From sequence record SRR31156797_2365: 64,000 nucleotides of DNA; one strand, written 5' to 3'. The translations under genes and the position numbers were made by a program. Below, piece after piece: positions 26,527-43,509 of the stretch; positions within the stretch are counted from its first letter, which is position 1; each line of letters opens with the position of its first letter. The notes below the pieces were generated by a model. It had not been told where the DNA came from. It was given only the letters and a program-made list of their open reading frames with translations, and did no database searches.

Positions 26527-26746
26527 TGCGGATAATAAGGAACGAAATTAGCAAATATTGTACAGTAATTGCTTTTACAGTAAAGATCGTTGTTTTTTTG
26601 ACATCTGCACTATTATAAAATGACATATTCCGGAGCCCGTTTGGCTCACATATGAATTTTGTACCAATTTTTAAATTTACATATATGCATGCGTCTATCA
26701 CTAAAAAACTTCGTATTATTGCATCTAAAAATTAAATTCACCAGCT

Positions 26747-28024
26747 ATGAAAAGTGTTACTTACTCCTTACTCACCGTAATCTCATTACTTGGGATTTCA
26801 TTACTGATCAGCTCTTTTACTGAAAAAGAAAAAATTCAATCCCGCGAAAACACTCCCGGAACCGTTACCTTTTCGGTAACCACACAAAGTGAGGGTGGCT
26901 CGTTTGCCCCAAGACATGTACTGGCCATTTGGGTTGAACATGACGGCGAATTTGTGAAAACCCGCAAAGCCATGGCTAACCGGCGAAAACAATACCTCTA
27001 CACCTGGAAAGCCGCATCTAATTACAACGTAACAGATGCCATTACCGGGGCAACACTTACCAGCCACACTTCACACACCATCGAGTGGGACTGTACCGAT
27101 CTGAATGGTGATGTGGTTGCAGATGGCGAATATGTGATGTGGATAGAATTTACTGAAAAGCATGCACAAGGACCACTTTTTAATATCTCCTTCCAAAAAG
27201 GCCCGGACGGTTTTGACATAACCCCACCGGATGAAAACCACTTTAAAGATATGCAGCTTACCTGGGAGCCTGAATTAGTTTTGGTTGCCGATTTCACAGC
27301 AGATGTTGAAGAATCCTGTACCGAAGAAACTGTAACTTTTACAGATAATTCAACCGGTGCTACTTCATGGGACTGGGATTTTGGCGAAGGTGCCGATCCT
27401 GCTACTGCCAATACACAAGGGCCTCACGAGGTGGTTTATTCAACATCGGGAAGCAAGACTGTATCACTCACCATCGATCAGGGAGTTACCCAAACCAAAA
27501 CCGATTTTATTACTGTTTATCCTGATGCCGAGGCCGGCTATACCTGGACACAAGTGAGCCGGACCATTACCTTTACCAACACTTCAACAAATGCTACAGC
27601 TTACGCATGGAACTTTGGCGATGGCATTACCAGCAACGAAGAAAATCCTGTGCATACCTATGAAGAAGATGGAGTTTACAACGTAAGCCTTATTGCAATA
27701 CCCGTTATGTGCGAGGAAGATATGTATATCGAAGAAATTGTAATCAACACTGTTGGCTTCAATAACCCGGATCCTGAAGGACAAGTGAATATTTATCCCA
27801 ATCCGGGAAATGGGGTGTTTAACATTACACCGGCAAGCAACTGGCTCAATTCCACAATTTCGTTGTTTGATGTATCCGGGCAACTGATTCTGGAACAAAA
27901 TTATACCGGAGTACAAAATGGTTCAACCCTCACATTTGGAAATGAACTGATTAAACCAGGAATCTATCTTTTGAACATCAATCATGAAAGTGGACAGCTC
28001 ATACAAAAGGTGTTGGTAAAATAA
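26747..28024 (+). CDS. DUF2271 (flavinylation-motif) domain + 2 PKD domains + T9SS type A CTD
   Basis: DUF2271 pattern AIWVE..GEFVKT...YLYTW...DAITGAT...WDCTD.NG..V.DG.Y...E..E. Two PKD units (WDWDFGEG, WNFGDG...NPVHTY). IYPNPGNG...GIYLL...KVLVK CTD. Confidence 0.85.
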   Translation: MKSVTYSLLTVISLLGISLLISSFTEKEKIQSRENTPGTVTFSVTTQSEGGSFAPRHVLAIWVEHDGEFVKTRKAMANRRKQYLYTWKAASNYNVTDAITGATLTSHTSHTIEWDCTDLNGDVVADGEYVMWIEFTEKHAQGPLFNISFQKGPDGFDITPPDENHFKDMQLTWEPELVLVADFTADVEESCTEETVTFTDNSTGATSWDWDFGEGADPATANTQGPHEVVYSTSGSKTVSLTIDQGVTQTKTDFITVYPDAEAGYTWTQVSRTITFTNTSTNATAYAWNFGDGITSNEENPVHTYEEDGVYNVSLIAIPVMCEEDMYIEEIVINTVGFNNPDPEGQVNIYPNPGNGVFNITPASNWLNSTISLFDVSGQLILEQNYTGVQNGSTLTFGNELIKPGIYLLNINHESGQLIQKVLVK

Positions 28025-28046
28025 CCTTTTGATCACGATATGATAA

Positions 28047-28073
28047 AAAAGCCCACCTTTGTTGTGGGCTTTT
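28047..28073 (+). terminator. Intrinsic terminator
   Basis: AAAAGCCCAC-CTTTGTT-GTGGGCTTTT. Confidence 0.7.
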
Positions 28074-28094
28074 CTTTTGCCAAAATAATTTTAT

Positions 28095-28802
28095 ATGCAG
28101 CTCAATAGAATATTTCACGTATTAACCGTGACACTCCTTATTTTTGTCACAATTCCTGACCAGGTAGTCCTGGCCCAGAAACACCCTTCCTTTTTCAGCA
28201 TACAGTCAGGCGCTTCCGTTCCATTTGGAGGATACAGTTCCACAACTCTCGATGAGGGTAGTTTTACACAAACAGGTTTTAATGCCACACTTGAGGGAGC
28301 CTGGTTTTTTTCCAAACATTTTGGTGCAGGCCTTTCGGCAGGATTAAACCTTCATCCGGTGGATGTTTCTACCTTGGGCAGGGCACAGGTAAACAACGAG
28401 CCATTCCTCACTGATGTAATCATCCGGTCGGAGCCCTACAGGGTTATAACTGTTATGCCCGGATTATTTGTGGGATATCAATTGTCGGAAAAATGGTTTA
28501 TCAGCGGCAAATTCCTGGCTGGTCTATTACACGGCAAAACACCCTATCAACTCTACAAACCTGATTATTACCTGCTCCCTGATGAATGGGAGGAAATTAC
28601 TTCGAGTAGCGATTACAAATTTTCCTGGCAAATTGGAACATCCCTCAGATATCAGTTATCTTCGTGCATTGGTATCTCTTTAAATGCCGGCCTGATTTAC
28701 GATGAACTTCAATTTACTTTTCAAACTGCCCAGGGCTCAAGAACAGATAACCGGAAAATTGGAATGATAAAACTGACTCCTGGTATCGAGATTTACTTTT
28801 AG
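28095..28802 (+). CDS. Small outer-membrane beta-barrel protein
   Basis: Signal peptide, amphipathic strands, C-terminal GIEIYF. Confidence 0.7.
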   Translation: MQLNRIFHVLTVTLLIFVTIPDQVVLAQKHPSFFSIQSGASVPFGGYSSTTLDEGSFTQTGFNATLEGAWFFSKHFGAGLSAGLNLHPVDVSTLGRAQVNNEPFLTDVIIRSEPYRVITVMPGLFVGYQLSEKWFISGKFLAGLLHGKTPYQLYKPDYYLLPDEWEEITSSSDYKFSWQIGTSLRYQLSSCIGISLNAGLIYDELQFTFQTAQGSRTDNRKIGMIKLTPGIEIYF

Positions 28803-28909
28803 CCTGATGCAGCAACTAAATTGGAGAAGATACAAACTGCAATAGTTGTATTTTTCAGCCTCAGACAGCGCGAAAAACTGTTTAAAATATATCTAAATAG
28901 GTGTATTTT

Positions 28910-28923
28910 ATGACATATATCAA
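28910..28923. promoter_or_regulatory. FNR/Crp-type box (ATGAC-ATAT-ATCAA)
   Basis: 8/10 match to TTGAT-N4-ATCAA, upstream of TAnnTTTG boxes at 29006-29013 and 29022-29029 that precede the NapC/NirT cytochrome. Confidence 0.5.
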
Positions 28924-29244
28924 AATATTTCTAATCTACGTCAACAACAACGAGGGTGGATAACCTCATTGTAACTTGCTTTTATCCATCTGGTTTAATC
29001 ATACTTACCTTTGCTTTTCTCTACATTTGCCTGATTATGGTTGTTTGAAAAATTCAACAAAATATTCAGGTATTATATGTAGTCAAGGCAACTACTCTAA
29101 AAACTGTAAATTACATCTTTAGGAAAAACATAATTTATATGGGCTCATTACTGATATAATCTTTAAAACTTTACCGCAAAGGTGACTGGAAATGACATAT
29201 CAATCTATCATGAATACAGTTTGTTTCACTAAATACTTCAACCT

Positions 29245-30744
29245 ATGAAATTCCCTCCATCCATTAAAAACATGCTTTCACTTGCTGGTGTTGTATTATC
29301 TGCAATAAGTCTTTTTATCATTATTTTTCTGGTGATTATCTCCGTAATTTTTGATCAGGGGAGCTCCTACCTTGGATTATTCACCTACATTATAATGCCG
29401 GTATTTTTGGTCATCGGTCTGTTAATGGTGCCATTGGGTATGATCAGAAAAATAAGAAGGGACAAGAAATATGAAAAGGTGGAAACCCCCACCTGGCCCC
29501 AAATTGATTTCAACCTGAAAAAACACCGCAGTATTACATTGGTTTTCATATCAGTAACGATGGTCTTTTTACTGGTATCTTCCATTGGAAGTTATGAAGC
29601 TTTTCACTACACCGAGTCGGTGGAATTTTGCGGCAAGCTTTGTCATAGTGTAATGGAGCCGGAATATGTGGCATACCAAAACTCCTCGCATGCCCGTGTT
29701 TCTTGTGTTACCTGCCACGTTGGTCCGGGAGCCGACTGGTATGTCCGATCTAAAATGTCGGGACTGTACCAGGTATATGCGGCTACATTTAATGATTATC
29801 CAAAACCTATTCCCACTCCAATCACCAACCTGCGACCGGCACGTGAAACTTGCGAACAGTGTCACTGGCCTGAAAAGTTTTACGCCAGGCAACTGTCCAC
29901 CCATAAACATTACCTGGCTGATGAATCGAACACGGAATGGGACATTCATTTAAAAATTAAAACCGGCCCAAAACTCAGTGCTTTGGGCCTGAAAGAAGGC
30001 ATCCACTGGCACATAAATCCCGATGTGAAAATTGAATACATCGCCACTTCGCCTCAGCGCGATACCATTCCATGGGTAAGGTATACCAACCTCAAGACAA
30101 ACGAAGTGTATGTTTATGAAGATGCTGAAAATCCGCTGGGAAATCCTGGGGAAAAGATGACCAAAATCCGCACAATGGATTGCATGGATTGCCACAACAG
30201 ACCATCTCACCTCTACAGGGATCCTGCCGATTTTGTTGACGATGCACTTACATCAGGGAAAATTGCCAGCGACCTGCCCGACATTAAAATGCTCAGTATG
30301 GAATTGCTTTATCCGGAATTTCAATCAACAGACAGTGCCATGGTTTTTATTGCCAATGAAGTGATGTTTTATTACGACATTATGTACCCTGAAATTCTTG
30401 AAAACAGAAAAGAAGACGTTGAGCAGGCCATCAAAACCCTGCAAAGTGAATTTAAGAAAAATATATTCCCGGGCATGAAAGTCCGATGGGATGTGTATCC
30501 TAATCAGTTGGGACACGTAGAAAACGATGGCTGTTACCGCTGCCATAACGACAGGCATGAAACTGAATCCGGACGTGTTATCAGCAGGGATTGCCAGTTA
30601 TGTCACGAAATCACTGCTCAGGGTACTCCTGATAATATGGAGGTATCCTCCGTGTTGGGTGGTCTGGAATTTAAACACCCCATTGACATTGATGAGAAAT
30701 GGAGAACCATTTTCTGTTCAGAATGTCATCATGAGCTCTATTAA
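29245..30744 (+). CDS. Inner-membrane NapC/NirT-domain heptaheme cytochrome c (ImcH-like)
   Basis: Three N-terminal TM helices; YTESVEFCGKLCH (CX3CH) plus six CxxCH motifs (CVTCH, CEQCH, CMDCH, CYRCH, CQLCH, CSECH); LRPARETC motif. Confidence 0.88.
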   Translation: MKFPPSIKNMLSLAGVVLSAISLFIIIFLVIISVIFDQGSSYLGLFTYIIMPVFLVIGLLMVPLGMIRKIRRDKKYEKVETPTWPQIDFNLKKHRSITLVFISVTMVFLLVSSIGSYEAFHYTESVEFCGKLCHSVMEPEYVAYQNSSHARVSCVTCHVGPGADWYVRSKMSGLYQVYAATFNDYPKPIPTPITNLRPARETCEQCHWPEKFYARQLSTHKHYLADESNTEWDIHLKIKTGPKLSALGLKEGIHWHINPDVKIEYIATSPQRDTIPWVRYTNLKTNEVYVYEDAENPLGNPGEKMTKIRTMDCMDCHNRPSHLYRDPADFVDDALTSGKIASDLPDIKMLSMELLYPEFQSTDSAMVFIANEVMFYYDIMYPEILENRKEDVEQAIKTLQSEFKKNIFPGMKVRWDVYPNQLGHVENDGCYRCHNDRHETESGRVISRDCQLCHEITAQGTPDNMEVSSVLGGLEFKHPIDIDEKWRTIFCSECHHELY

Positions 30745-30777
30745 AAAACTTTATAATTATTGAATCTTGTGAAAACC

Positions 30778-32268
30778 ATGGAACAAACTTCTACCAATAC
30801 TTTTTGCTCCGACCTGTCAACCAGCCCTATTGATAATGCAGGCACAATACTGGTAACAGGAGCTACCGGATACATTGGCGGAAGACTCGTTCCTGAATTG
30901 CTTGGCAGAAATTACAAAGTACGGGTTATGGTCAGATCAGACTCACCCGGAATTACAGACCGCTGGCCAGGTGTAGAGGCAGTTTATGCCGACGCCAATG
31001 ACCTCGAACAACTGCTACTGGCACTCGAAGGTGTCGAAACTGCTTACTACCTTATTCATTCACTGAACCTTGGTAACAAAAAATTCGAATCCGTTGACCT
31101 GAAAGTTGCTGTAAATTTTAGAACCGCAGCAGAAAACCAGGGTGTAAAAAGGATTATTTACCTGAGCGGACTGGGCATGAGTGATGCCTCGCTTTCGCCA
31201 CACCTGAAAAACAGGACGATGGTTGCAGATAAACTTCTTGATGGAAAGATACCTGTAACTGTCCTGCGTGCAGGAATGATTGTTGGCTCAGGTAGTGCAT
31301 CCTACGAAATACTCAGGTACCTCGTAAAAAACACACCTGTATTTTTTATTCCCTATTGGGCCAAAACAAAAAGTCAACCCATATCTATAAGGGACGTAAT
31401 AAAATATCTGATTGGTGTGTTGGAACTTCCGCAGACGGCAGGCCAAAAATATGATATTGGGGGGCCTGACATTGTAACCTATGATGAGCTGTTACGCATT
31501 CTGGCTAAAATTCAGGGCAAACGGAGGTTTTTCTTTCCGGGTTTGATTACTTACACGCCGCTATATGGCTATATCGCAAGCCTGCTCACACCCGTACCTG
31601 GCCCAATCACCAAAGTACTGATTGATGGTTGTAAAAACGAAGTGATTTGTGTTAACAACGAAATCAGGCAACTTCTGCCCTTTAAACCACTTTCTCTGCA
31701 TGATGCCTTTGTGAAGGCTATGACAGCCGAAGAGTCTGATAAAATATCCTCAAGATGGTCGGATGCATACCCGCCTGGATATGAGTTGGCCATAAGACTG
31801 CCCAACCTTAACCCTCCGCCAAAATACACCAGTTCATACTGCCTGCTTAGTTATAAAGACAATAGTGTGTTGTTCGATTCATTTTGCAGAATTGGAGGCA
31901 AAATGGGTTGGTTTAACGGAAACTGGATGTGGCGGCTACGGGGCTGGTTCGACAGGCTTTTGCTGGGTGTTGGGAGTTCACGGGGGCGGCGCAGCAACAC
32001 TGAACTCAGGATAAATGATACAATCGATTTCTGGCGGGTAGAAAATATTGTAAAAGACAAAATGCTTTTGCTTAGAGCTGAAATGAAACTTCCGGGTGAG
32101 GCCTGGCTTGAATTTTCTATCGACAATTATGAAGGATTAAAGAAACTGCTTATCAACGCCTATTTTCAACCCAGAGGTTTTGCTGGATGGTTATACTGGA
32201 TTTTTTTCCTACCCTTTCACAGTTTTATTTTTAAGGATCTGCTCAAACACATAGAAAAACGTGCCTGA
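30778..32268 (+). CDS. NAD(P)-binding SDR fused to DUF2867 (YbjT-like)
   Basis: LVTGATGYIGG, AYYLIHS, GSGSASYE; C-terminal IGG..GW...W.WRLRG..D, DFWRVE, LRAEMKLPGEAWL. Confidence 0.88.
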   Translation: MEQTSTNTFCSDLSTSPIDNAGTILVTGATGYIGGRLVPELLGRNYKVRVMVRSDSPGITDRWPGVEAVYADANDLEQLLLALEGVETAYYLIHSLNLGNKKFESVDLKVAVNFRTAAENQGVKRIIYLSGLGMSDASLSPHLKNRTMVADKLLDGKIPVTVLRAGMIVGSGSASYEILRYLVKNTPVFFIPYWAKTKSQPISIRDVIKYLIGVLELPQTAGQKYDIGGPDIVTYDELLRILAKIQGKRRFFFPGLITYTPLYGYIASLLTPVPGPITKVLIDGCKNEVICVNNEIRQLLPFKPLSLHDAFVKAMTAEESDKISSRWSDAYPPGYELAIRLPNLNPPPKYTSSYCLLSYKDNSVLFDSFCRIGGKMGWFNGNWMWRLRGWFDRLLLGVGSSRGRRSNTELRINDTIDFWRVENIVKDKMLLLRAEMKLPGEAWLEFSIDNYEGLKKLLINAYFQPRGFAGWLYWIFFLPFHSFIFKDLLKHIEKRA

Positions 32269-32302
32269 AAAGAAAATATTGAGAAGAAAAGCTGTTGTGT
32301 AT

Positions 32303-33010
32303 TCATCCTGTTTCGCTGATTCGCCGGAGGGCATCCATATCATGGATACTGATTTTTTTACCTGCCTGCCCGATAATTCCAGCTTTTCGGAATTCACGAA
32401 GTGTTTTTAATACACTGTCGGTTGACATATCAGCAAGTGTTCCAAGTTCCCTGCTTGTAAATATCAGGTCGAATTCCTCAGCCTCAAATATCTGCTCACA
32501 AAGATATATCAGTACTTCTGCAAGCCTTCCCGGTACATATCGTTGGGTGAGGTTGATAAGCCGGTTGTATGTGTTAAGTGTATTAAAACTAAAATCTTTA
32601 AAAAATTCTTCAGCAAACGCCTTATTGGAATAAATGATTTGCTTGAATGCTGATACTTCGATAAAGCAGGCCTCAGTAGGTAGATGTGTTTTAACAGTGT
32701 AGTGGTGACGATGATGAACAAACATTCCGGGGCCACCAATGAAATTACCGGGTCTTACAATTTTTAAAATCAAATTTCTATTATTCAGTCCCTCAATATA
32801 GAGACTGGCAAGCCCGGAGGTTAATACGATTACATGAGACAGATAAGCACCCTGCTTCCGAATGATTTCGCCAGGTTTAAAGCTGAGCTCAAATCGATTT
32901 GCATTCATTTTTTCCAGTTCATCGGAACTCAGCTTTGAAAACAATGGGGATTTGGTATCACATGCTGGACAATTTTTTCGATTGCAATTGGTGTTTATGG
33001 AATGATACAT
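32303..33010 (-). CDS. Crp/Fnr family regulator, paralog B
   Basis: N-terminal CNRKNCPAC, cNMP-fold body, central ACF Cys, C-terminal HTH (SRELGTLADMSTDSVLKTL). Confidence 0.9.
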   Translation of the reverse strand: MYHSINTNCNRKNCPACDTKSPLFSKLSSDELEKMNANRFELSFKPGEIIRKQGAYLSHVIVLTSGLASLYIEGLNNRNLILKIVRPGNFIGGPGMFVHHRHHYTVKTHLPTEACFIEVSAFKQIIYSNKAFAEEFFKDFSFNTLNTYNRLINLTQRYVPGRLAEVLIYLCEQIFEAEEFDLIFTSRELGTLADMSTDSVLKTLREFRKAGIIGQAGKKISIHDMDALRRISETG

Positions 33011-33320
33011 ATTATATGGTTAATTTTTCCAGTCTTCAAAAGTAAGTGATTTTTCCGGCAGGTAATTTCAAAATCCAACCGGTCCCGGATAAGCTATTGG
33101 AAAAATACTGTCAACCAGCATCGATGATCAGCCACCGGCGTTTTTTTAAAAATAGTTTTTATGTTATGGATTCAATCCTGGCACCAACAGGTACTATTGT
33201 GGATATTTCAGATTTAGCATTTTCAGGGTCTTGGTCCATTTACCCTAACAATCAAACGGATCCTGGCCACACTTAAATATTTCGGGAAAATCCATGACAG
33301 CAGTGAAACAATCGAAACAC

Positions 33321-34025
33321 TTACCCTATCATACTGATCTTTTCCAGGGCAGCCATTTTTGGAATCCTTAAATGATCACCTTCTAAAATAATTACCTCTT
33401 CGGTTTTGAATTCTTTCAAAATTCTGATCACACTCTCTTTTGACAGGTTGGTCATATCGGCCAAATCCTGCCTTGACAAAGAAAGGTGGAAATCCTGGGA
33501 TTGATAGATATCTTTGCTCAGGTATAGTAATGCATCAGCAACACGCCCTGGCATTTGCTTTTGTGTGAGGTCCGCAAACCGCCCAAAACTATATACAGCA
33601 TTTCGGTTTACGTGTTCGATAAATTTTTCTGCAAAATCCGCATTTGCCCTGATCGCCTCTTTAAAACGGTGCTGGGTAACGTAGCAAACCGTACAATCCT
33701 GAAGCGCAGTAGCAGAATAGTAATTTCGACCATCCAAAAAAATACCCGGGCCTCCGAACATTTCGATAGGTTTTATCAATTTCATGATTAATCCTCGTCC
33801 ATTTGGGCCTTCGAGGTAGATTTTTACCAGGCCACTGGTCAACATTAAAATATGAGAACATGCGGAACCCTGCTTGAAAATCATTTCACCCTTTCGGTAG
33901 GTAGTTTCAAACCGATCCTTATTTAACTGTTCCAGTTGTTCAACTGTAAGCAAACTAAAAAGCGGTGACCGCTTATTGCAGTCATTACAGTTATTACAAA
34001 TGGATGATTTCTTAAATTGTATCAT
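33321..34025 (-). CDS. Crp/Fnr family regulator, paralog A (FNR-like)
   Basis: N-terminal CNNCNDC, central CTVCY, HTH LSRQDLADMTNLSKESVIRIL with an E...R recognition helix. Confidence 0.92.
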   Translation of the reverse strand: MIQFKKSSICNNCNDCNKRSPLFSLLTVEQLEQLNKDRFETTYRKGEMIFKQGSACSHILMLTSGLVKIYLEGPNGRGLIMKLIKPIEMFGGPGIFLDGRNYYSATALQDCTVCYVTQHRFKEAIRANADFAEKFIEHVNRNAVYSFGRFADLTQKQMPGRVADALLYLSKDIYQSQDFHLSLSRQDLADMTNLSKESVIRILKEFKTEEVIILEGDHLRIPKMAALEKISMIG

Positions 34026-34106
34026 CGTTAGTTTTCCCTTCTTTCATACTTAACTATGCAAAAATAAGCATATCTGGATTCATTTTGAACTAAAATCATT
34101 AAAATG

Positions 34107-34120
34107 TTGATATAGATCAA
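34107..34120. promoter_or_regulatory. Perfect FNR box TTGAT-ATAG-ATCAA
   Basis: 10/10 consensus match between divergent -7 boxes: TATTTTTG (minus, 34059-34066) and TACATTTG (plus, 34197-34204). Confidence 0.8.
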
Positions 34121-34244
34121 TTTTTCCGGTGAGAAATACCTTGTTTGGACTAGCAAATACCACCGTTAAAAAATGTTGGCGTGAATCCAATAACAGTACA
34201 TTTGACACACAATTATAAACATCAAATTTAAAGATCATATAACT

Positions 34245-35276
34245 ATGAGAAAAATTAAAATTACACACGTTTTTATGCTGATGATCCTTGCACTCGCAGT
34301 AGCTGCAGGATGTACCAAAGAAGGACCTGCAGGACCTGCAGGACCTGCAGGAGCAGATGGTACTGATGGTACCGATGGAGTTGATGGAAATGCTTCATGT
34401 ATTCAATGTCACACCTTAGAATACATGGGCCAGATTGAAGAGCAGTATGCCATGTCTGGCCACTCAGCTGGTTTGTATGTTGGCTATGCTGGTGGACGTA
34501 ACGGATGCGCCATGTGTCACTCGGACGAAGGTTTCCGTGAAACACAGCACACCGGACAGGACACAACTGCTGCCAATATTCCAATTCCAACTCACATCCA
34601 GTGTTCAACCTGTCACAGCTTCCACGAGACCCTCGACTTTGAAAACGATGGTCCTGACTACGCTGTTCGTCAAAACGGACCAGTTGACCTGTTGATGTAC
34701 CGTGGTATGGAACCTGTTGTAACACTCGACTTCGGTAACAATTCTAACCTCTGCCTGAATTGTCACCAGCCACGCCGTCCGGGACCAGAAGATGATGGTA
34801 CAGGAAACTTCACCATTACCAGTACACACTACGGACCCCACCACGGGCCCCAGGGAACATTCCTCCAGGGTATTGGCGGAGCCGAAATTGGTGTAGGCTA
34901 TCCTGAACCAGGCAGTTCAACACACGTTCAGGCAGGTTGTACCGGTTGCCACATGCATGAGTATGCCAATGAAGAAGGTGGCCATACATGGAAAGTTCCG
35001 ATTGCATCTTGTACACCATGCCACGAAGGTGCTACCACACTCGACATCAATGGTAAACAAACCGAGATTGAAGGGCTGATGGCAGAACTTGAAACCAAAT
35101 TGCATGACCTTGGCGTTGTGGATGAAGAAGGACACCCTATTCCGGGAACCTATCCACTTGTTCAGGCACAGGCATTCTACAACTATGCAGGTCTTGTTGA
35201 CGATCGCAGTTATGGTGTTCACAATTATGGTTACATCAAGCAAATTGTCACCAATTCGATCAACGCATTAAATTAA
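34245..35276 (+). CDS. Hexaheme cytochrome c lipoprotein with collagen-like linker
   Basis: Lipobox VAAGC; eight G-X-Y triplets; CIQCH, CAMCH, CSTCH, CLNCH, CTGCH, CTPCH; C-terminal helical region with DRSYGVHN. Confidence 0.9.
   Translation: MRKIKITHVFMLMILALAVAAGCTKEGPAGPAGPAGADGTDGTDGVDGNASCIQCHTLEYMGQIEEQYAMSGHSAGLYVGYAGGRNGCAMCHSDEGFRETQHTGQDTTAANIPIPTHIQCSTCHSFHETLDFENDGPDYAVRQNGPVDLLMYRGMEPVVTLDFGNNSNLCLNCHQPRRPGPEDDGTGNFTITSTHYGPHHGPQGTFLQGIGGAEIGVGYPEPGSSTHVQAGCTGCHMHEYANEEGGHTWKVPIASCTPCHEGATTLDINGKQTEIEGLMAELETKLHDLGVVDEEGHPIPGTYPLVQAQAFYNYAGLVDDRSYGVHNYGYIKQIVTNSINALN
34323..34394 (+). repeat. Collagen-like coding repeat (GGACCTGCA x3, then GAD/GTD/GTD/GVD/GNA)
   Basis: Exact 9-bp tandem repeat at 34323-34349, continuing as Gly-X-Asp triplets. 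Confidence 0.9.
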
Positions 35277-35293
35277 GAAACTAATAACGCTTC

Positions 35294-35331
35294 AAAAAAG
35301 GTTTCTTAATACTCAATAAGAAACCTTTTTT
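35294..35331 (+). terminator. Intra-operon hairpin/terminator after the hexaheme gene
   Basis: Perfect 15-bp stem AAAAAAGGTTTCTTA / TAAGAAACCTTTTTT, 8-nt loop, followed by GTTTTT. Confidence 0.7.
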
Positions 35332-35362
35332 GTTTTTACTATCACCCCAAAATTTTAACTCT

Positions 35363-35758
35363 ATGAAAATGAAGAGACTATTACAATTCACAGTACTGTT
35401 TGTGTTTATTGCAATGCTTGCATCCTGCGAATACGACTTCATCCAGCCCGAACCGGCTCCTGAACCCCCAGACCCTACAGATACCATTTACTTCGCTACA
35501 GAGGTAGCGCCAATCTGGGAAAATAACAGCTGCACAAACTGCCATAAGCCCGGAGGCATAAGTTCTTTGGACCTTACTGCAGCCAATGCATATAGCAGCC
35601 TGACATCAAAAGGCCTCTACAATGTAGATGATCCGCCTTCAAGCAAGATTTATTATTTTCCTCACCCAACAACTGGTGAGCACAATTATAAATATGCCAA
35701 TGAAACCGAGGCAGAGATCATTTTGCAATGGATCGCACAAGGTGCACTGAATAACTAA
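35363..35758 (+). CDS. Monoheme cytochrome c lipoprotein
   Basis: Lipobox LASC, Pro-rich linker, F..EVAPI...CTNCH, C-terminal WIAQGALNN. Confidence 0.85.
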   Translation: MKMKRLLQFTVLFVFIAMLASCEYDFIQPEPAPEPPDPTDTIYFATEVAPIWENNSCTNCHKPGGISSLDLTAANAYSSLTSKGLYNVDDPPSSKIYYFPHPTTGEHNYKYANETEAEIILQWIAQGALNN

Positions 35759-35780
35759 GGAGAATAACTTAAAATTGAAG

Positions 35781-36662
35781 ATGATGAAAAAGTATATAGC
35801 AGGAATTTTAATATTAGTTATTGGATGTTTACACTTGCAGGCGCAAGACGAAGCAGAAACCAAAAAGGTGGACAAACCGGTAAGGTTTTCATTTGCAAGC
35901 GGACATCTCATCGATAACCAAACCAGCACTATGCCCGTTAAAAACACACTGGAATGGGTTATAGAACACAGATTTGGAACAATGGACAACGGAACTACTG
36001 ACATGTTTGGTTTGTATGCTCCGGGAGCCAACATCAGGAATGGATTTAACTACACCATTCTTGATAACCTTCAGGTAGGTTACGGACTTACCCTAAAAAA
36101 TATGTACAGCGATTTCAATGTAAAATATGTGCCACTAGAACAAACACGTGAAAACACAATTCCCGTTTTTGTTACCATTTATGCAAACATGGCCATTGAT
36201 GGCAGAAATGAAGACGTTTTCGGAACCGAGTATAAATTCTCCAACCGCATGTCATATTTCAGCCAGTTGATTGTAGGACGTAAAATCAATAACTGGCTAA
36301 GCGTTCAGGCACACACCAGTTTTACCCACTATAATTCGGTGGCTGACGACATGAACCACGATGTGGTAGGTGTAGGTTTTAACGGAAGGATAAACTTTTC
36401 ACCGCAATCTTCTTTTTTGTTCCAGTATGATATTCCACTCAAGATTGAGTCGATTTCGGAACAAAGTGAATTTGATGCGGCAAAGCCAAACCTGGGAATC
36501 GGGTACGAAGTTTCAACCAGTACACATGCTTTCCAGATTTATATTACCTCAGCTAATGGTATTTTACCGCAGGATAATTATCTTTACAATTCCTTCGACT
36601 GGACAGAAGGTGGTTCTGATCTGATGTTTGGATTTACTATTACGCGTTTATGGGGATTTTAA
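35781..36662 (+). CDS. DUF5777-like outer membrane beta-barrel protein
   Basis: Signal peptide; IEHRFG...FGLY, RMSYFSQL, KPNLGIG.E.STSTHAFQI, FGFTITR; C-terminal Phe. Confidence 0.8.
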   Translation: MMKKYIAGILILVIGCLHLQAQDEAETKKVDKPVRFSFASGHLIDNQTSTMPVKNTLEWVIEHRFGTMDNGTTDMFGLYAPGANIRNGFNYTILDNLQVGYGLTLKNMYSDFNVKYVPLEQTRENTIPVFVTIYANMAIDGRNEDVFGTEYKFSNRMSYFSQLIVGRKINNWLSVQAHTSFTHYNSVADDMNHDVVGVGFNGRINFSPQSSFLFQYDIPLKIESISEQSEFDAAKPNLGIGYEVSTSTHAFQIYITSANGILPQDNYLYNSFDWTEGGSDLMFGFTITRLWGF

Positions 36663-36714
36663 CAGCAAACCCAAATTAAATAATACAATTGTTTAACTTT
36701 AAATCACTTTAAAA

Positions 36715-37134
36715 ATGAAAAAAGCTAATTTTTTAATGATTTCAACATTAATCGCAGGATTTTTCCTGCTCATGTCATTTATTGTACCACAAGATCAAAA
36801 GCAACCAGCACCCTGGGACGTTCCGTCAAAATACAAGAAAATGGAAAATCCATATGCAGGCGATAAGAGCCTCGACAGGGTTGGTAAAATGTTGTATTCG
36901 AAACATTGCAAATCCTGCCATGGAAATAATGGTGAAGGTGACGGCCCAAAAGCCAAGCAACTCGAAACCTGGTGTAATGATTTTACAACCGAAGATTTCC
37001 AGGCACAATCAGATGGTGTTTTGTATTACAAATCCTTCATTGGTCGTGATGAAATGCCCAACTTCGAAAAGAAAATTCCGGAAGAAGAAGATCGTTGGGC
37101 TGTTATAAACTACATGAGGGGAATGAAGAAATAG
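36715..37134 (+). CDS. Periplasmic class I monoheme cytochrome c
   Basis: Signal/anchor, NP...GKMLYSKHCKSCHG..GEGDGP, distal Met in GRDEMPNF, W.VINYMR. Confidence 0.92.
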   Translation: MKKANFLMISTLIAGFFLLMSFIVPQDQKQPAPWDVPSKYKKMENPYAGDKSLDRVGKMLYSKHCKSCHGNNGEGDGPKAKQLETWCNDFTTEDFQAQSDGVLYYKSFIGRDEMPNFEKKIPEEEDRWAVINYMRGMKK

Positions 37135-37175
37135 TAACTGAAAGTCCTTGCTAAACAAGTTAGCAACAGGATATT

Positions 37176-37234
37176 AAAATGCCCTGGCTGGATTTTCACA
37201 CCTACTATTGGTGAAATTCTAACCGGGGCATTTT
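37176..37234 (+). terminator. Long imperfect hairpin between sub-operons
   Basis: AAATGCCCTGGCTGGATTTTCAC pairs with GTGAAATTCTAACCGGGGCATTT (2 G-U pairs, 2 mismatches). Confidence 0.55.
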
Positions 37235-37389
37235 CATAACCCCCCATTTCATATGAATGGAAATCACCCGACAATGAGAGCCATAGTTCCTTTAACTATG
37301 CTCTTAAAGCCAGGTAATCAAAAAAAAACTACTTCTGGATTTTAAAACCTATTCAGACATACCAACTATTCTAAATTGATGATTCAACA

Positions 37390-38349
37390 ATGAAAATCAG
37401 ACTAGCTAATTTACTTATCATTTCAATTTTCCTGGCTATGCCATGCTTAAATGCTTTTGGCCAGGACGAAACAGATGAAATTCCTGAAAACGTGACTGCT
37501 AATCAAAAATGCTTCAAATGTCATGGCCAGGACTTTTACTATTATTATAATGACTGGATCGAACAAGATGTCCGGGAAAGAATGAACCCGTATTTTGTAA
37601 TTGATACAGCAGAGTTTTATGTATCAAATCACAAAACCTTTTTTTGTACCGATTGCCACTCACCGGATTATGAAAATTTCCCGCACGACGGGCTGCTCCG
37701 CATGGAGCCAAGTTACACCTGTATGGATTGCCATGGAGGTGATGACAATTATGCTCAATTTAATTTCGAAAAAATTGAAGAAGAGTTTGACAACAGTGTG
37801 CATGCAAGCAGGCACGATGAGACTTTTGACTGTTGGATGTGCCATGATCCTCATACCTACCGTATCAGTGCCAGAAACACCAAAAGCGTTATCAATACCG
37901 TTGCCTATGACAATGGTATCTGCCTTCAATGCCATGCCGACCTGGATATGTACCAGATAGTTACCGATAAGGAAAATCCAAATATTTTAACTACCCACGA
38001 CTGGCTGCCAAATCAGAGTCTTCACTTTGCAAATGTGAGATGTATCGAATGTCACGCCAAAATTAACGACAGTATCCTTGTAGCTCACCAGGTAGTACCT
38101 AAAGAACAGGCAGTGAAAAAATGTGTGGAATGCCACTCCACCAACTCCCTGCTCATGGCCTCACTTTATAAGCACCAGGTTCGCGAACAGCGGGGGTCAG
38201 CAGGTTTTGTGAATGGAGCAATACTCAACGAAGCCTATGTTATTGGTGCTAACCGAAGCCCACTGCTCAATAAGGTCAGCCTGATCTTATTTGGGTTTGT
38301 GCTATTTGGAATTCTAATCCACACTATTTTAAGAATTATCAAAAACTAG
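37390..38349 (+). CDS. Heptaheme cytochrome c with C-terminal membrane anchor (CbcA-like)
   Basis: Signal peptide; CFKCH, CTDCH, CMDCH, CWMCH, CLQCH, CIECH, CVECH; C-terminal TM helix containing His (GILIHTILR). Confidence 0.88.
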   Translation: MKIRLANLLIISIFLAMPCLNAFGQDETDEIPENVTANQKCFKCHGQDFYYYYNDWIEQDVRERMNPYFVIDTAEFYVSNHKTFFCTDCHSPDYENFPHDGLLRMEPSYTCMDCHGGDDNYAQFNFEKIEEEFDNSVHASRHDETFDCWMCHDPHTYRISARNTKSVINTVAYDNGICLQCHADLDMYQIVTDKENPNILTTHDWLPNQSLHFANVRCIECHAKINDSILVAHQVVPKEQAVKKCVECHSTNSLLMASLYKHQVREQRGSAGFVNGAILNEAYVIGANRSPLLNKVSLILFGFVLFGILIHTILRIIKN

Positions 38350-38356
38350 AATAAAC

Positions 38357-38971
38357 ATGTCAAAAGATAAATTATATCTATATCCTGTCTGGATCCGGCT
38401 ATGGCACTGGATCAACGCACTCCTGTGCCTGTTATTGATTATTTCGGGTGTAAGTATGCAATATTCAAATCCTCAATATCCATTTATCAGGTTTGATATT
38501 GCCGTTACGATGCATAACGTCTCAGGGATTCTGATAACCGTGAGCTATGTATGGTTTATCCTTGGAAACTGGAGAACCGAAAACGGGCGTTTTTACAGAA
38601 TGAAATTACGTGGTTTAAAATACCGTTTAACAGAACAGGCCAAATATTATGCTTTTGGGATTTTTAAAGGCCAACATGCTCCGTTTCCAATTAACAAAAA
38701 CCGGAAATTTAATCCGCTTCAAAAGATTGCTTACTCCTCTATTATGTATGTCTTTTTTCCGCTGATGTTCATATCCGGATGGTCGCTCCTGTTTCCGGAA
38801 ATTATTATTCATAACGTATTTGGATTTAGCGGTATACATATTACAGGGGTGATGCATATCATCTCCGGGTTTATCATTTCTGTATTTATGTTTGTCCACA
38901 TTTACTTCTGCACAATCGGAACAACCGTTAAAAGTAATTTCAGGGCCATGTTCACAGGATGGCATGAATAA
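38357..38971 (+). CDS. Di-heme cytochrome b (FdnI/HydC/PhsC type; CbcB-like)
   Basis: Four TM helices with His in RLWHWIN, TMHN, VMHII and VHIY; KFNPLQK motif. Confidence 0.9.
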   Translation: MSKDKLYLYPVWIRLWHWINALLCLLLIISGVSMQYSNPQYPFIRFDIAVTMHNVSGILITVSYVWFILGNWRTENGRFYRMKLRGLKYRLTEQAKYYAFGIFKGQHAPFPINKNRKFNPLQKIAYSSIMYVFFPLMFISGWSLLFPEIIIHNVFGFSGIHITGVMHIISGFIISVFMFVHIYFCTIGTTVKSNFRAMFTGWHE

Positions 38972-39027
38972 TCATCCAACACGATCTTTTGGATCGGTAT
39001 AAATAACTAAAGAAAAAACAACACGAT

Positions 39028-40002
39028 ATGAGCCAAAAAACAAATGACAAAAACTCAAGGAGGAATTTCCTGAGAAAGGGGATTCTTGCGGGTTCGGCTG
39101 CCATTGCCGGCAGTGCATTTATCTCGTCCTGTTCAAACGAACCCGAAAGCGGTGAGAAAATCAGGGTACTCACCACCGATGGCAAAATAGTAGAGGTTGA
39201 CAAAGCACATATAAAATCCGAAAAACAAGTCAGGGAAGAAGCCCGACAGGGTGTACCCGGACGGAAATTCGTCATGGTGATCGACCTTGCAAAATGTGCA
39301 AATGCCCGCAAATGTACGGAGGCATGTCAGGAAGGTCATCATCTACCAAAAAGTATCGAATACATCAGGGTTTACCTTTTACAGGATTCCGAAAAAACTG
39401 CACCTTATTGGTTCCCACGCCCCTGTTTTCACTGCGACAACCCACTGTGCGTAAGTGTATGCCCGGTTGGCGCTACTTATAAACGCTCGGATGGCATCGT
39501 GCTGGTTGACCAGGAACGCTGCATTGGTTGCAAATTCTGTATGACCGGTTGCCCCTATTCAGCAAGATCTTTTGCCTGGGAACACCACGAAAAGTACGAA
39601 ACTCCTATGCAATATGACCCGGAAACTACAGCTCCCGGCAAAGAAGGAACCGTTTCGAAATGTGTGTTCTGTGCCGACAGGGTTGCCGTAAATAAGCTTC
39701 CCTATTGTGTTGAGGCATGCCCAATGGGTGTGATCTATTTTGGGGATGTGGATGAAGATACCGTAACAAACGGAGCAGAAACCGTGCTCTTTAGTCAACT
39801 GATTAAGGACCGTGGCGGATACCGATACCTTGAAAACCTGGGCACAAGACCCAGCGTATATTACCTTCCTCCGGTAAACCGTCAGTTCGACGTTGAACGC
39901 GGTTTCAAAGGCCTGGATGAAGATGTAAAGAAAAGATATGATGACACTGAGTATTACAAAAAAAATATTTCTGATCATGGAAACAGGGATGAAAAACTAT
40001 AA
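39028..40002 (+). CDS. Tat-exported 4Fe-4S dicluster protein (NrfC/DmsB/DsrO-like)
   Basis: SRRNFL twin-arginine signal with possible lipobox FISSC; CANARKCTEAC, CFHCDNPLCVSVCP, CIGCKFCMTGCP, KCVFC...CVEACP. Confidence 0.92.
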   Translation: MSQKTNDKNSRRNFLRKGILAGSAAIAGSAFISSCSNEPESGEKIRVLTTDGKIVEVDKAHIKSEKQVREEARQGVPGRKFVMVIDLAKCANARKCTEACQEGHHLPKSIEYIRVYLLQDSEKTAPYWFPRPCFHCDNPLCVSVCPVGATYKRSDGIVLVDQERCIGCKFCMTGCPYSARSFAWEHHEKYETPMQYDPETTAPGKEGTVSKCVFCADRVAVNKLPYCVEACPMGVIYFGDVDEDTVTNGAETVLFSQLIKDRGGYRYLENLGTRPSVYYLPPVNRQFDVERGFKGLDEDVKKRYDDTEYYKKNISDHGNRDEKL

Positions 40003-41290
40003 TACAACACTGGAAGAATTTAAACACCAGATAGAACGTCCGGGATTGAAAACCTGGGTGTGGATGAGTTTTCTTGCTCTGGTGATATTATTAGGGATTT
40101 ATGCCCTGATCCGGCAAATCACCGATGGCCATATCATCACCGGTATGCGTGATAATGTGGTTTGGGGCATTTACATCGTTAACTTCATCTTTTTTATGGG
40201 CGTGAGTTATGCCGGCGCTTTAATTTCGGGAGGACTTCACCTGTTCAAAACATCATGGCGCAAACCGGTGATCCGGATAGCGGAGTTTATCACCATTATT
40301 TCTCTGCTCATCGGACCATTGTATATCCTGCTTTGTATCGGCAGGCTCGACAAATTGCACTACCTGGTGCTCTTTGGCAGAATTCAATCGCCAATCACAT
40401 GGGACGTTATTGCGATTTCAACAGATATTATCGGCTGTTTGCTTTACCTGTACCTGTCAATTCTCAGGGACATTGCCCGCATTCGCGATTTCGAGAATCT
40501 TAAAATGGCCAAATGGCGTAAAAAGCTTTATAAAGTCCTTGCGCTTGGTTACAACGGACACCCCGAGCAACAAAAGCGGCTCAACCGTGCCAGCGATATC
40601 ATGGCTGCAATGGTTATGGCCATAGCTATTATCGTATACTCTGTTCTTGCATGGATCTTTAGTGTAACACTTCAACCCGGATGGCACAGCACCATTTTTG
40701 GACCCTATTTTGTAATCGCTGCGGTGTATTCAGGTACAGGCGTACTCATTGTCCTGATGTGGATTTACCGGAAGTTGTTTCACCTTGAAGAATACATTAC
40801 CCGAAAGCATTTTGTAAATGTGGGGGTGATCATGCTCGTGCTTGCAGCGTTTTTCGGGTATTTTACCTTTAGTGAATACCTCACCAAATGGTATGGATCG
40901 GAAAAGAACGATGAACAGTTGATCCAGATCCTTTTCAACCGGTACTACTGGTTATTTGTTTTTTCAAATTATGTGGGTGTATTGTTACCTCTGATTGTAG
41001 TGGGAATTCCGTATTTCCGTAAGATCAGCTTTATCACCATTACAGCTGTTGTTGTGGTGGTAGCTCTGTGGATAAACCGTTACCTCATTGTGGTTCCAAC
41101 ACTTGAATCACCATACCTGCCTGTACAGGATTCTCGCCCGGACTGGATACACTACTCCGGAACATGGGTTGAATGGGCACTTACCATTGGTGGGATAGCC
41201 TCTTTCTGTCTGCTTTTCACCATCTTTTCCAGGTTTATCCCCATACTGCAGCTTTCCTCACCCAAGAACCAGGCAAAAACAACACAATAA
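39989..41290 (+). CDS. NrfD/PsrC-family quinone-interacting membrane subunit
   Basis: About 10 TM helices; TGMRDNVVWGIYIVNFIFF.G, IGR, SPITWD, PGWHS, W..RY..VVP. Start is ATG 39977 or 39989. Confidence 0.92.
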   Translation: MKNYNTTLEEFKHQIERPGLKTWVWMSFLALVILLGIYALIRQITDGHIITGMRDNVVWGIYIVNFIFFMGVSYAGALISGGLHLFKTSWRKPVIRIAEFITIISLLIGPLYILLCIGRLDKLHYLVLFGRIQSPITWDVIAISTDIIGCLLYLYLSILRDIARIRDFENLKMAKWRKKLYKVLALGYNGHPEQQKRLNRASDIMAAMVMAIAIIVYSVLAWIFSVTLQPGWHSTIFGPYFVIAAVYSGTGVLIVLMWIYRKLFHLEEYITRKHFVNVGVIMLVLAAFFGYFTFSEYLTKWYGSEKNDEQLIQILFNRYYWLFVFSNYVGVLLPLIVVGIPYFRKISFITITAVVVVVALWINRYLIVVPTLESPYLPVQDSRPDWIHYSGTWVEWALTIGGIASFCLLFTIFSRFIPILQLSSPKNQAKTTQ

Positions 41291-41325
41291 CTAAGGAAAT
41301 GAAGAATCATAAAAATGATGAGCCT

Positions 41326-42213
41326 ATGAAAACGACAATATATTCCAAATCTGCCATCAATTTGTTTTTGATGATACTAGCTTTTGGCATTTTTCAAAAC
41401 CTTTACGCCCAGGCCCCGGTTTATGCTGAAATGACCACATGGAAATATGACGACCTGTCACGTGAACTCATTGTGCATGCAACATCCGAAAATGATGAGG
41501 GTGAAATCCCTGCTTCAGGCCTGAACTTTGAATTCTTTGTGATGTCAGACGGAGAACCCATGCAAATTGGACAGGCCAAAAGCGATGAAGCCGGCAAAGC
41601 CGTTTTAAAATTAGACCCCGGATTTGATTTTCCGAAGGATGATGAAAATTTTGTGACAGTGAATGCTGTTTTCGGAGGAAACGCAGAATTTGAGGCTGCT
41701 GAAACTGAACTGATGTTTAAAGACGTGATCATCGACCTTGAATTTGTTGAGGATGATGAAACCAAATACATTGCCTATTCAGGAAAGATTATCGATAAAG
41801 ACGGCGAACTAATACCCCTTGCCGACGATGAGGTGCTCTTTTATGTACCACGGATGTTTAGCATGTTAAAAATTGCAGATGGCTGGTTCGAGGAAAACGG
41901 AGAAGGGGTATCAGAATATCCTACCCAGATCATTGGTGACTCTGACGGGCGACTTGAAGTGCATGCCCGCATCCTGGAGCACTTCGACTTTGGCAATGTG
42001 GAAAGGATTGAAACGGTTGATTGGGCAAAGAAAAGAAGACTGATTGCCGCCGAACAACCCTCCAGGGAACTCTGGACACCCATCGCACCACTTTGGATGA
42101 TCATCACACTTATCATACTGCTTGCCGGAGTCTGGGGACACTACTTCTACGCGATGTATGAACTTTATATGATTAAAAAAATTAGTAAAAGAGAAAATAA
42201 GAAACAGGATTAG
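41326..42213 (+). CDS. Uncharacterised exported beta-rich protein with C-terminal TM anchor
   Basis: Signal peptide after ATG 41326 (alternative 41299), acidic beta-rich body, RELW...PLWM...VWGHY anchor. Last gene before the terminator. Confidence 0.75.
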   Translation: MKTTIYSKSAINLFLMILAFGIFQNLYAQAPVYAEMTTWKYDDLSRELIVHATSENDEGEIPASGLNFEFFVMSDGEPMQIGQAKSDEAGKAVLKLDPGFDFPKDDENFVTVNAVFGGNAEFEAAETELMFKDVIIDLEFVEDDETKYIAYSGKIIDKDGELIPLADDEVLFYVPRMFSMLKIADGWFEENGEGVSEYPTQIIGDSDGRLEVHARILEHFDFGNVERIETVDWAKKRRLIAAEQPSRELWTPIAPLWMIITLIILLAGVWGHYFYAMYELYMIKKISKRENKKQD

Positions 42214-42288
42214 ATTTTGATTTGATGTTGGGTAGCCAATGGGTTACCTGTATTTGTTTATTTTTTTGGGGATAGTTTTTTCATTTTT

Positions 42289-42317
42289 CAGGGCCTTTCG
42301 GGGCCCTGTTTTTTTTT
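42289..42317 (+). terminator. Strong intrinsic terminator closing the cytochrome operon
   Basis: CAGGGCCT-TTCG-GGGCCCTG followed by T9. Confidence 0.9.
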
Positions 42318-42357
42318 GGCAAACTTTCACTCACTTATCTTGTTGGGCTTTTAATGA

Positions 42358-42684
42358 AAAAACATTTCAGAATTTAAAGCCACGGGGCTAACTCCGGTTT
42401 TTGGTGATACCTGCAAAGCACCCTTTGTGCAAGAAAGCCATATCAGGATTGGGCTGGAATATGTGTATGAAGAAAAAATCCGGATCAACAACACCATACT
42501 GATCATAGGAAAAGTCCATGAGATCATGCTGCCAGAAGATGTTCTCACAGATGATTATTTCGTGAACGCCTCAAAGGCAAACACCGTTGCAGTTTCCGGA
42601 CTTGATGGCTACTTTTCGACCACCCCGATCAAACGCCTCTCCTACCCCAGGCCTGGTATAACACCACAGGAAATCCGCATTTAG
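42358..42684 (+). pseudogene. 5'-truncated flavin reductase (DIM6/NTAB-like) remnant
   Basis: Frame reads ISEFKATGLTP...APFVQES.IRIGL...N.TILIIGKV...SGLDGY, which is the C-terminal half of the family. In-frame TGA at 42355-42357 and no N-terminal half. Confidence 0.65.
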
Positions 42685-42686
42685 CT

Positions 42687-42848
42687 ATGCCCCACAAAAA
42701 AATGCACCTTCCGGAAAAAACATGCCCGGTTTGTGGTAGGCTTTTCTGTTGGCGTAAAATGTGGGAACGCAACTGGGATGCTGTGAAATATTGCAGCAAA
42801 CGATGCAGCAACAGCAGAAAAAAGACTAACGTGGAAAATACAGATTAA
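42687..42848 (+). CDS. DUF2256 family small zinc-finger-like protein (53 aa, absent from ORF track)
   Basis: Hand translation: [53 protein letters not shown]. Confidence 0.85.
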
Positions 42849-43321: not shown

Positions 43322-43509
43322 TTTGAGTTTTGTTTAAATTTTGTGATTATTTACCAAATAATGCAATCATGAATAGCTTCATTGTCCCCATCCTGCCGAG
43401 CTATTCTCGAGCATGCTCGAGGCTTTGCCTCGGCACCAGCCCTTCCTCCCCTTCAGGGGAAGGGAGTAGCCCACGCACTGGCCACCTGGTAGCCTTGTGG
43501 GGTGGTGTT

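Follow-up and report, generated by a model that had tools for sequence, protein, structure and literature searches.

A cluster of cytochrome and membrane-protein genes in a 64,000-nucleotide stretch of record SRR31156797_2365 (the window) represents a conserved and widespread module with a Crp/FNR-type box. In it, a hexaheme lipoprotein (G), a monoheme lipoprotein (H) and an outer-membrane barrel of family DUF5777 (I) are combined with interchangeable quinol oxidases. The cluster comprises fifteen open reading frames (A–O) at 26747-42213; an earlier annotation (the original prediction) covered 26747..42317. The module works like a quinol-to-acceptor chain of the Geobacter type and stands outside the porin–cytochrome family. 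It may well act as a sink that carries quinol electrons to Fe(III), Mn(IV) or humic acceptors outside the cell (probability about 0.5). Bacteroidota are abundant fermenters of anoxic sediments, and some of them reduce Fe(III) and Mn(IV) oxides. The cluster supplies named candidate genes in the cultured genera Labilibaculum, Draconibacterium, Maribellus, Mangrovibacterium and Ancylomarina, so that the route of this metal reduction becomes directly testable. DUF5777 gains a redox context from the cluster. The core features are the following.

28910..28923, no strand: Crp/FNR-type box upstream of imcH, one mismatch to the family consensus
29245..30744, +: C, ImcH-type heptaheme quinol oxidase with three transmembrane (TM) helices and a CX3CH first heme (pocket residues)
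32303..33010, −: E, second Crp/FNR-family regulator, N-terminal Cys cluster (Pfam/NCBIfam)
33321..34025, −: F, Crp/FNR-family regulator (Pfam/NCBIfam; conserved C13, C16 and C114)
34107..34120, no strand: perfect FNR-type box in the divergent F/G promoter region (motif scan)
34245..35276, +: G, hexaheme lipoprotein with Gly-X-Y tether, OcwA/OmhA/NrfA fold and His199–His200; probable terminal reductase
35363..35758, +: H, monoheme lipoprotein, PSCyt1-like (frame called from 35330; likely start 35363 or 35369)
35781..36662, +: I, DUF5777 12-strand plugged outer-membrane barrel with lipid-facing H63, H183 and H249
36715..37134, +: J, periplasmic class I monoheme cytochrome c (His/Met)
37390..38349, +: K, CbcA-type heptaheme cytochrome, C-terminal TM helix with invariant H311
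38357..38971, +: L, CbcB-type cytochrome b
39028..40002, +: M, Tat-exported NrfC/DsrO-type Fe-S protein with 15 conserved Cys
39938..41290, +: N, 10-TM NrfD-family protein, nearest ActC (true start probably near 39977-39989)
41293..42213, +: O, membrane-anchored protein of no Pfam family, possibly Ig-like (frame called from 41173)

Gene content, the families of C and K–L, the folds of G and I, synteny and the regulatory box were all computed. The fifteen frames appear at these positions in the open reading frame list of the window. The stretch also runs through a single contig, free of joints, in a sequencing run that may be its source and so gives no independent confirmation. The five c-type cytochromes and 22 heme motifs of the original prediction are confirmed, with seven motifs in C (six CxxCH and one CX3CH), six in G, one each in H and J, and seven in K. 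CxxCK is confined to the Fe-S protein M. Pfam and NCBIfam profiles, used to annotate A–O, assign C to NapC/NirT, E and F to Crp, J to class I cytochrome c, L to the cytochrome b561 type, M to a DsrO/NrfC-like group, N to NrfD, I to DUF5777 and A to a DUF2271–PKD–type IX secretion system (T9SS) architecture.

Conservation was assessed in the best 80 of 581 confirmed GTDB stretches, with up to 10 kb on each side and many ending at contig ends; matches were counted at >40% query coverage. As anticipated, the gene set is syntenic in relatives: I recurs in 52 loci, H in 48, a Crp gene in 45, K in 41, L in 39, J in 32, C in 28, M in 16, N in 14 and O in 10, and the full order Crp–G–H–I–J–K–L–M–N–O is found again in locus L123. 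A quinol-oxidase module accompanies the barrel in 50 of the 52 loci with I. Its nature varies, from CbcBA only (16 loci), CbcBA with ImcH and a CbcL-like protein (10), NrfCD only (9), CbcBA with ImcH (8) and CbcBA with a CbcL-like protein (4) to three further combinations found once each; a ccs gene is present in 22. The triple ImcH, CbcBA and NrfCD of the window occurs within 10 kb in none of the 52 barrel-bearing loci, and ImcH was not found with the query used in the closest genome (G001).

Prevalence was estimated in 251 evenly sampled genomes of the order Bacteroidales, where co-occurrence was counted by hand and is inflated by kinship. G occurs in 65 genomes, DUF5777 in 118 (113 over the cut-off), ImcH in 42, of which 38 carry G, and CbcB-like proteins in 64, or 57 after removal of seven weak-only matches (31-38% identity). 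G and CbcB-like proteins occur together in 50 genomes, G only in 15, CbcB only in seven and neither in 179; DUF5777 is present in 63 of the 65 G carriers. In the family to which the genome of locus L017 belongs, 27 of 81 genomes have G; among 12 of these 27 that were viewed, cbcBA-like genes lie within 19 kb in 11, and H and I in eight. Cytochrome c maturation, a prerequisite raised at the outset, is present in 5/5 relatives tested, and menB exceeds the cut-off in 3/5.

Several loci carry variants of this arrangement. In five loci (L011:3206-4732, L018:12183-13454, L090:3683-4933, L091:10292-11557 and L095:3620-4939), G and H are separated by a gene with an EB_dh domain (ethylbenzene dehydrogenase gamma-like), a candidate heme carrier. 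Elsewhere a 9-10-heme protein and a double rhodanese stand beside G and CbcBA (L054:11907-13280, L026:13393-14403; also L028, L114 and L134). This variant, reminiscent of Geobacter ExtH/ExtKL, may point to sulfur or selenium acceptors. In a Chitinophagales bin (L034:1113-15157), a full alternative complex III operon and G are found with a second M-N-O-J module adjacent. L113 (G241:C1:1701372-1702397) appears to have interrupted copies of G and of the adjacent Crp gene.

The three alternative quinol oxidases of the original prediction can all be recognized: an ImcH type (C), a CbcBA type (K–L) and an ActC/NrfD type (M–N). Protein C has the ImcH topology, with three N-terminal TM helices and seven heme motifs, the first of them CX3CH. 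Compared by residue positions, its H134, E124, K170, Q176 and Y185 stand at the same offsets as H137, E127, K173, Q179 and Y188 of Geobacter ImcH, so that the heme-1 pocket contains E, K, Q and Y at −10, +36, +42 and +51. E124, K170 and Q176 are kept in 22/22 homologues; Y185, present here, falls below the 90% listing threshold. In Geobacter, the available text of 10.1101/2023.05.03.539133 describes these key residues and the need for ImcH in the reduction of extracellular acceptors; ImcH is needed for those of high potential.

In K, which has seven hemes, H311 of the C-terminal helix is conserved in 40/40 homologues. The cytochrome b with four His that had been predicted is indeed a cytochrome b, with another His count: L has five invariant His (17, 53, 167, 181 and 203, each in 38/38), to which K adds H311. 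L scores 181 bits against NF011582, a thiosulfate-reductase-like cytochrome b (cut-off 204). A heptaheme protein with a C-terminal TM His, adjoining a cytochrome b, is the published layout of CbcBA, which is needed for extracellular acceptor reduction in Geobacter according to passages of 10.1101/2021.04.15.440034. Thus, C and K–L share heme numbers, topology and key residues with Geobacter ImcH and CbcBA. The organization differs: the Geobacter loci are separate and sigma54-regulated, whereas here one Crp/FNR-boxed cluster is found, and K–L has Crp/FNR regulators and the box instead of a BccR/sigma54 regulator. The periplasmic carrier is monoheme J, unlike in the Geobacter system. Relatives of this locus add a counterpart of Geobacter CbcL, namely a 19-heme protein fused to cytochrome b, compared with 9 hemes in CbcL itself.

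The Tat-exported Fe-S protein with an NrfD-type partner is likewise confirmed. M has the twin-Arg signal SRRNFL and 15 conserved Cys, which suggest three 4Fe-4S clusters and one 3Fe-4S cluster. N is nearest ActC of alternative complex III (E 1.8e-56), J matches ActE and c552, and O accompanies M–N; an Atlas search with I and O returned only their own families. A full alternative complex III was considered and rejected. The likeness extends to ActC-like N, ActB2/NrfC-like M and ActE-like monoheme J; ActA, the ActB1 domain, ActD and ActF are absent here, and the anchored protein O is found instead.

The acceptor end of the chain is probably provided by G, whose modelled structure suggests a terminal reductase. 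The model (pLDDT 90) finds its best structural match in OmhA (Z 15.4, rmsd 3.1, 228 aligned residues), followed by OcwA (Z 15.2, rmsd 3.6, 238 aligned) and NrfA (Z 12.6). OcwA was also picked by Foldseek (E 1.6e-6) and by a G-family profile (E 4.6e-11); these matches came from profile and fold searches, and a single-sequence PDB search with G gave none. Hemes 2-6 of G align with hemes 5-9 of OcwA when motifs are counted in the printed alignment. G shares with the OcwA/OmhA clade an NrfA-like heme core, a three-helix bundle and a CxxCH motif at the open heme. Heme 5 of OcwA is five-coordinate beneath a His-His pair (passages of PMC6703420 and PMC9250108). In the G family, H199 is kept in 116/116 and H200 in 111/116 sequences, about 4 residues off the place expected from OcwA. 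Since the printed alignment stops short of the pair, we infer by analogy that H199 and H200 lie over the open heme of G. Seven conserved His are found outside the six heme motifs, and five of these presumably are distal heme ligands as in NrfA; R85 (100/116) and R177 (114/116) are conserved as well.

The likeness of G to OcwA (Thermincola potens), OmhA and SmhC (Carboxydothermus ferrireducens) covers the fold, the three-helix bundle and the open-heme CxxCH; the putative His-His pair may be a further common trait. The differences are six hemes and one predicted open site, compared with nine to eleven hemes and two open sites in the OcwA/OmhA clade, a lipid anchor with a Gly-X-Y tether, and a diderm host. 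With six motifs only, G is a shortened relative of OcwA, not OcwA itself. SmhC, a seven-heme OmhA relative likened to G by description only, rises on Fe(III) (available text of PMC7829351). An assignment of G to NrfA was rejected: CxxCK is absent and PF02335 matches in the G family are weak and partial. Among the 65 G carriers, the 50 strongest divide into 34 with a separate full NrfA and 16 that lack one. The original prediction had seen no terminal reductase in the cluster. This stands for molybdopterin, NrfA and oxidase motifs, and no Mo, NrfA, NosZ or oxidase genes occur among 66 flanking genes scanned; it does not stand for G, an OcwA-like protein with a predicted open heme.

The outer-membrane partner I belongs to DUF5777 (E 4e-69), and its model (pLDDT 92) has 12 strands and an N-terminal plug, with tied matches to FapF (Z 18.0), KdgM (Z 17.6) and COG4313 (Z 17.4). 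Of the two barrels first proposed, I is supported, and B has a weak match only (E 0.016, to OMP_b-brl_2). The porin–cytochrome conduit read into the locus is not upheld: an MtrB-type assignment of I is rejected by its 12 modelled strands and the lack of a PF11854 match. H63 and H249 are conserved in 52/52 and H183 in 48/52 family members, and all three are kept in 8/8 distant DUF5777 copies. Strand alternation places them on the hydrophobic lipid-facing side and not in the lumen. Two of them are close to the outer end of the barrel, and the third is at its inner end. In 49/53 copies, the gene immediately upstream of I is H.

The lipid-facing His of I could bind heme. Lipid-facing His can be catalytic in OMPLA and LpxR, which offers an alternative role. 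It is tempting to propose that DUF5777 and a monoheme lipoprotein form a new class of outer-membrane conduit, with b-hemes on the lipid-facing His, perhaps between protomers, and no cytochrome plug in the lumen, although such a conduit is rather unlikely. If it existed, with G as a surface reductase, MtrB-based screens would miss an export chain like that of Geobacter in about a quarter of Bacteroidales species. Electron conduction by the barrel would also mean that porin–cytochrome screens undercount electroactive bacteria. With MtrAB, OmaB-OmbB-OmcB, ExtABCD and Cyc2, the locus shares an outer-membrane barrel gene flanked by cytochrome genes; it differs by its 12-strand barrel, which has an N-terminal plug, and by a separate monoheme lipoprotein partner. 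No longer fused form of the barrel was found among 6236 candidates, which is weak evidence.

DUF5777 also has a life apart from this module. All eight distant copies are found in clusters with monoheme proteins, and some of them (L126-L128, L130) with T9SS cargo bearing DUF2271 or a heme motif; DUF2271-T9SS genes like A adjoin other DUF5777 modules in L127, L128 and L130. These clusters tie DUF5777 to outer-membrane redox chemistry, not to extracellular electron transfer (EET) alone. A separate DUF5777 type occurs with PSCyt1 cytochromes and YceI at L121:5464-9112, L123:3766-7215, L126:5552-8259 and L129:7322-10863, three of them with an OB-fold gene. Reeler-domain heme-motif proteins, CxxCH T9SS cargo and DUF2271-T9SS cargo are encoded at L126:4767-5552, L128:9373-10717 and L130:9152-10529. 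Such Reeler and T9SS cargo next to DUF5777 and monoheme pairs make a second candidate secreted redox module.

The regulatory box is of the anaerobic type that had been proposed. The box TTGAT-N4-ATCAA, sought within 400 bases upstream of G, occurs with at most one mismatch in 38/73 loci compared with 72/1460 random windows from the same loci, an enrichment that is more than chance. In the window, E and F are the expected FNR-type regulators; of their supposed boxes, the one at 34107 is perfect, the only such box in 64 kb, and that at 28910 has one mismatch to the consensus. These two are the only matches in the window, at two or fewer mismatches, to the family consensus derived from relatives. 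FNR senses oxygen through an Fe-S cluster, and conservation of C13, C16 and C114 (each in 44/48 F homologues) is compatible with a similar sensor in F, which by analogy may respond to oxygen. Matches to sigma-70-like promoters are at chance level (43 versus 40.2), and no Rfam family matches within 25000-44000.

From these elements a scheme can be drawn, in which the carrier order, the binding of H to I, the crossing of the membrane, the surface location of G, the acceptors and the direction of flow are what we infer. In anaerobiosis, a chain draining the menaquinol pool would be induced. ImcH, CbcBA and the ActC/NrfD–Fe-S module, with the CbcL-like 19-heme fusion in relatives, would interchangeably reduce periplasmic J; electrons would then pass to the outer-membrane pair of H and the DUF5777 barrel and on to G. 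The open heme of G would reduce Fe(III), Mn(IV) or humic acceptors, and the chain would probably be an auxiliary sink during fermentation.

Physiology of carriers agrees with such a minor sink. In Labilibaculum filiforme, BZG02_15425 shows 48% identity to G and keeps the His pair, and L. manganireducens encodes a member of the same 90% cluster; G is thus present in both described metal-oxide-reducing species of the genus. These strains reduce Fe(III) oxide, and L. manganireducens also Mn(IV) oxide (available text of PMC5760507). Of the respiration on metals first suggested, the reduction of oxides by carriers is therefore supported; growth by metal respiration is not, the described physiology being a minor sink during fermentation. 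For metal reduction, passages of PMC5760507 offered only NrfHA and a ferric reductase absent from one strain, and the locus tag BZG02_15425 was not found in the part of its supplement covered (2/10 'cytochrome' rows).

Parts of the module have been noticed before. ImcH and cbcBA are already known in Bacteroidota: passages of 10.1101/2021.04.15.440034 report cbcBA in Labilibaculum and name Bacteroidetes homologues as a possible EET marker, and a table in PMC6295460 lists five CbcL-type homologues and one ImcH homologue for Bacteroidetes. PMC8258643 drew attention to a Bacteroidetes bin, enriched on an anode, that has a barrel and six multihemes. Its seven-gene Bacteroidetes_1 anode-biofilm cluster, proposed for EET, resembles ours in having multihemes and one barrel and, compared by description, differs by its six multihemes and, in the passages of that paper, by the lack of named families. 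In a literature search outside which most subscription journals lay, no description of the module or of an OcwA-like Bacteroidota protein was found, nor any paper on DUF5777 or its role.

Several observations weigh against a role as an outward sink. The canonical lipoprotein export signal of Bacteroidota (described in passages of PMC5080379) is found in 0/116 G and 0/48 H sequences, and two DUF4625 lipoproteins of the same window do show it; surface exposure of G and H is therefore unproven. Of the signal, G has X-K-E only, in 45/116 sequences. No MtrB/PioB match exceeds the cut-off in the 65 G carriers (partial ones occur in 4/251 genomes), and a 12-strand barrel, as modelled, would be too narrow for a multiheme plug. 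I is absent within 10 kb in 28/80 G loci, some of which end at contig ends, about 50 genomes have DUF5777 without G, and some H–I pairs stand beside YceI and OB-fold genes, with no quinol oxidase; the co-occurrence counts, moreover, are not independent of kinship. Labilibaculum sends 2-6% of glucose electrons to oxides (available text of PMC5760507), a flux that is not tied to the cluster genes. Finally, in passages of PMC6703420, OcwA reduces oxides and shuttles and, in vitro, also nitrite (slowly) and hydroxylamine, so that the fold of G does not fix its acceptor.

For a surface location speak the fusion of the G domain to a T9SS tail (P0287) and to PKD domains (P0241, P0312) among nine distant proteins scanned, the Gly-X-Y tether in 104/116 G sequences, and six Chloroflexota and Acidimicrobiia loci in which G adjoins ImcH without any DUF5777 barrel; none is decisive. 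The six barrel-less loci are L044, L051, L067, L068, L071 and L077, three of which also have an NrfCD-type pair. Fusions of G-like modules with a T9SS tail or with PKD, LRR or Ig domains are seen in the large proteins P0287, P0241, P0312, P0225 and P0221.

The missing export signal of G and H is what a periplasm-facing reductase would have, a possible but less probable arrangement with both lipoproteins on the inner face of the outer membrane. The open heme of G would then reduce a soluble acceptor (chelated Fe(III), humic quinones, N-oxides or sulfur species), which might enter through the plugged DUF5777 channel. The resemblance of I to the channels FapF, KdgM and COG4313 (Z 17-18) fits this arrangement, as do the NrfA-type fold of G with R85 and R177 and the larger share of electrons that Labilibaculum sends to Fe(III) citrate (6-16%, available text of PMC5760507) than to oxides. 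Against it, the CxxCK lysine is absent from G, the Labilibaculum strains did not reduce nitrite (same text), the nearest structures of G are cell-surface proteins, and the conserved His of the barrel are placed by strand alternation on the lipid side and not in the lumen.

It is quite unlikely that the module is a general quinol:cytochrome c feeder, replacing bc1 or the full alternative complex III and loading a pool for oxidases, peroxidases or NrfA encoded elsewhere, with G as a buffer or detoxifying enzyme. The kinship of N to ActC and of J to ActE and c552, the M-N-O-J order in Flavobacteriaceae loci, the full alternative complex III operon that flanks G in L034 and the cbb3 and Cox oxidases of Labilibaculum (available text of PMC5760507) are in its favour. 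A feeder leaves unexplained why no part of the module is as constant as the barrel with its two lipoprotein cytochromes, and why ImcH, CbcBA and CbcL-like proteins are used. Inward flow from Fe(II), Fe(0), reduced humics or partner cells is very improbable, even though direction cannot be read from sequence and Zhong and Shi, in the text available, treat these families as quinol oxidases and quinone reductases, since the tested homologues ImcH, CbcBA and OcwA act outward and the carriers described (Labilibaculum) reduce metals in the published passages.

The remaining features of the cluster are accessory.

26747..28024, +: A, accessory T9SS cargo with DUF2271, PKD and C-terminal sorting domain (Pfam, motif)
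28095..28802, +: B, accessory small outer-membrane barrel (weak OMP_b-brl_2 match)
30760..32268, +: D, SDR/NmrA-DUF2867 protein, probably a passenger (Pfam; 1/80 loci)
42289..42317, +: intrinsic-terminator-like hairpin after O

The T9SS cargo and the second barrel had been counted as fixed members; A, B and D are rejected as core members, being matched in 2, 3 and 1 of the 80 loci, with a further counterpart of B in L132. In A, the predicted cargo with a flavinylation motif is supported by its PKD domain, its T9SS tail and DAITGAT at residues 97-103 ([S/T]GA[S/T] flavinylation type); its DUF2271 match (25.1 bits) falls below the 27.3 cut-off, which the orthologue of A in the nearest genome exceeds. 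Flavinylation of DUF2271 was demonstrated in passages of PMC8238504, and ApbE was found in 5/5 other genomes examined. D starts 16 bases past the end of imcH and may share its transcript.

The original prediction spoke of an island; a recent foreign island is rejected. The GC content of the cluster (0.39-0.44) is that of its flanks. In the nearest genome reached, an uncultured Lentimicrobiaceae bin (L001), G is 80% identical, like the housekeeping gene tex (80%), and identity to the closest relative ranges over 59-83% across G-L. The cluster therefore looks like native Bacteroidales DNA.

Beside the cluster, 42845-47396 (−) encodes a TonB-dependent receptor, a small His-rich open reading frame and the two DUF4625 lipoproteins, whose export signals are clear; it is probably a metal-uptake locus. 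Further upstream, 21321-22352 (+) encodes a 343-aa protein without Pfam match, whose tail is strongly acidic and Gly/Asp-rich.

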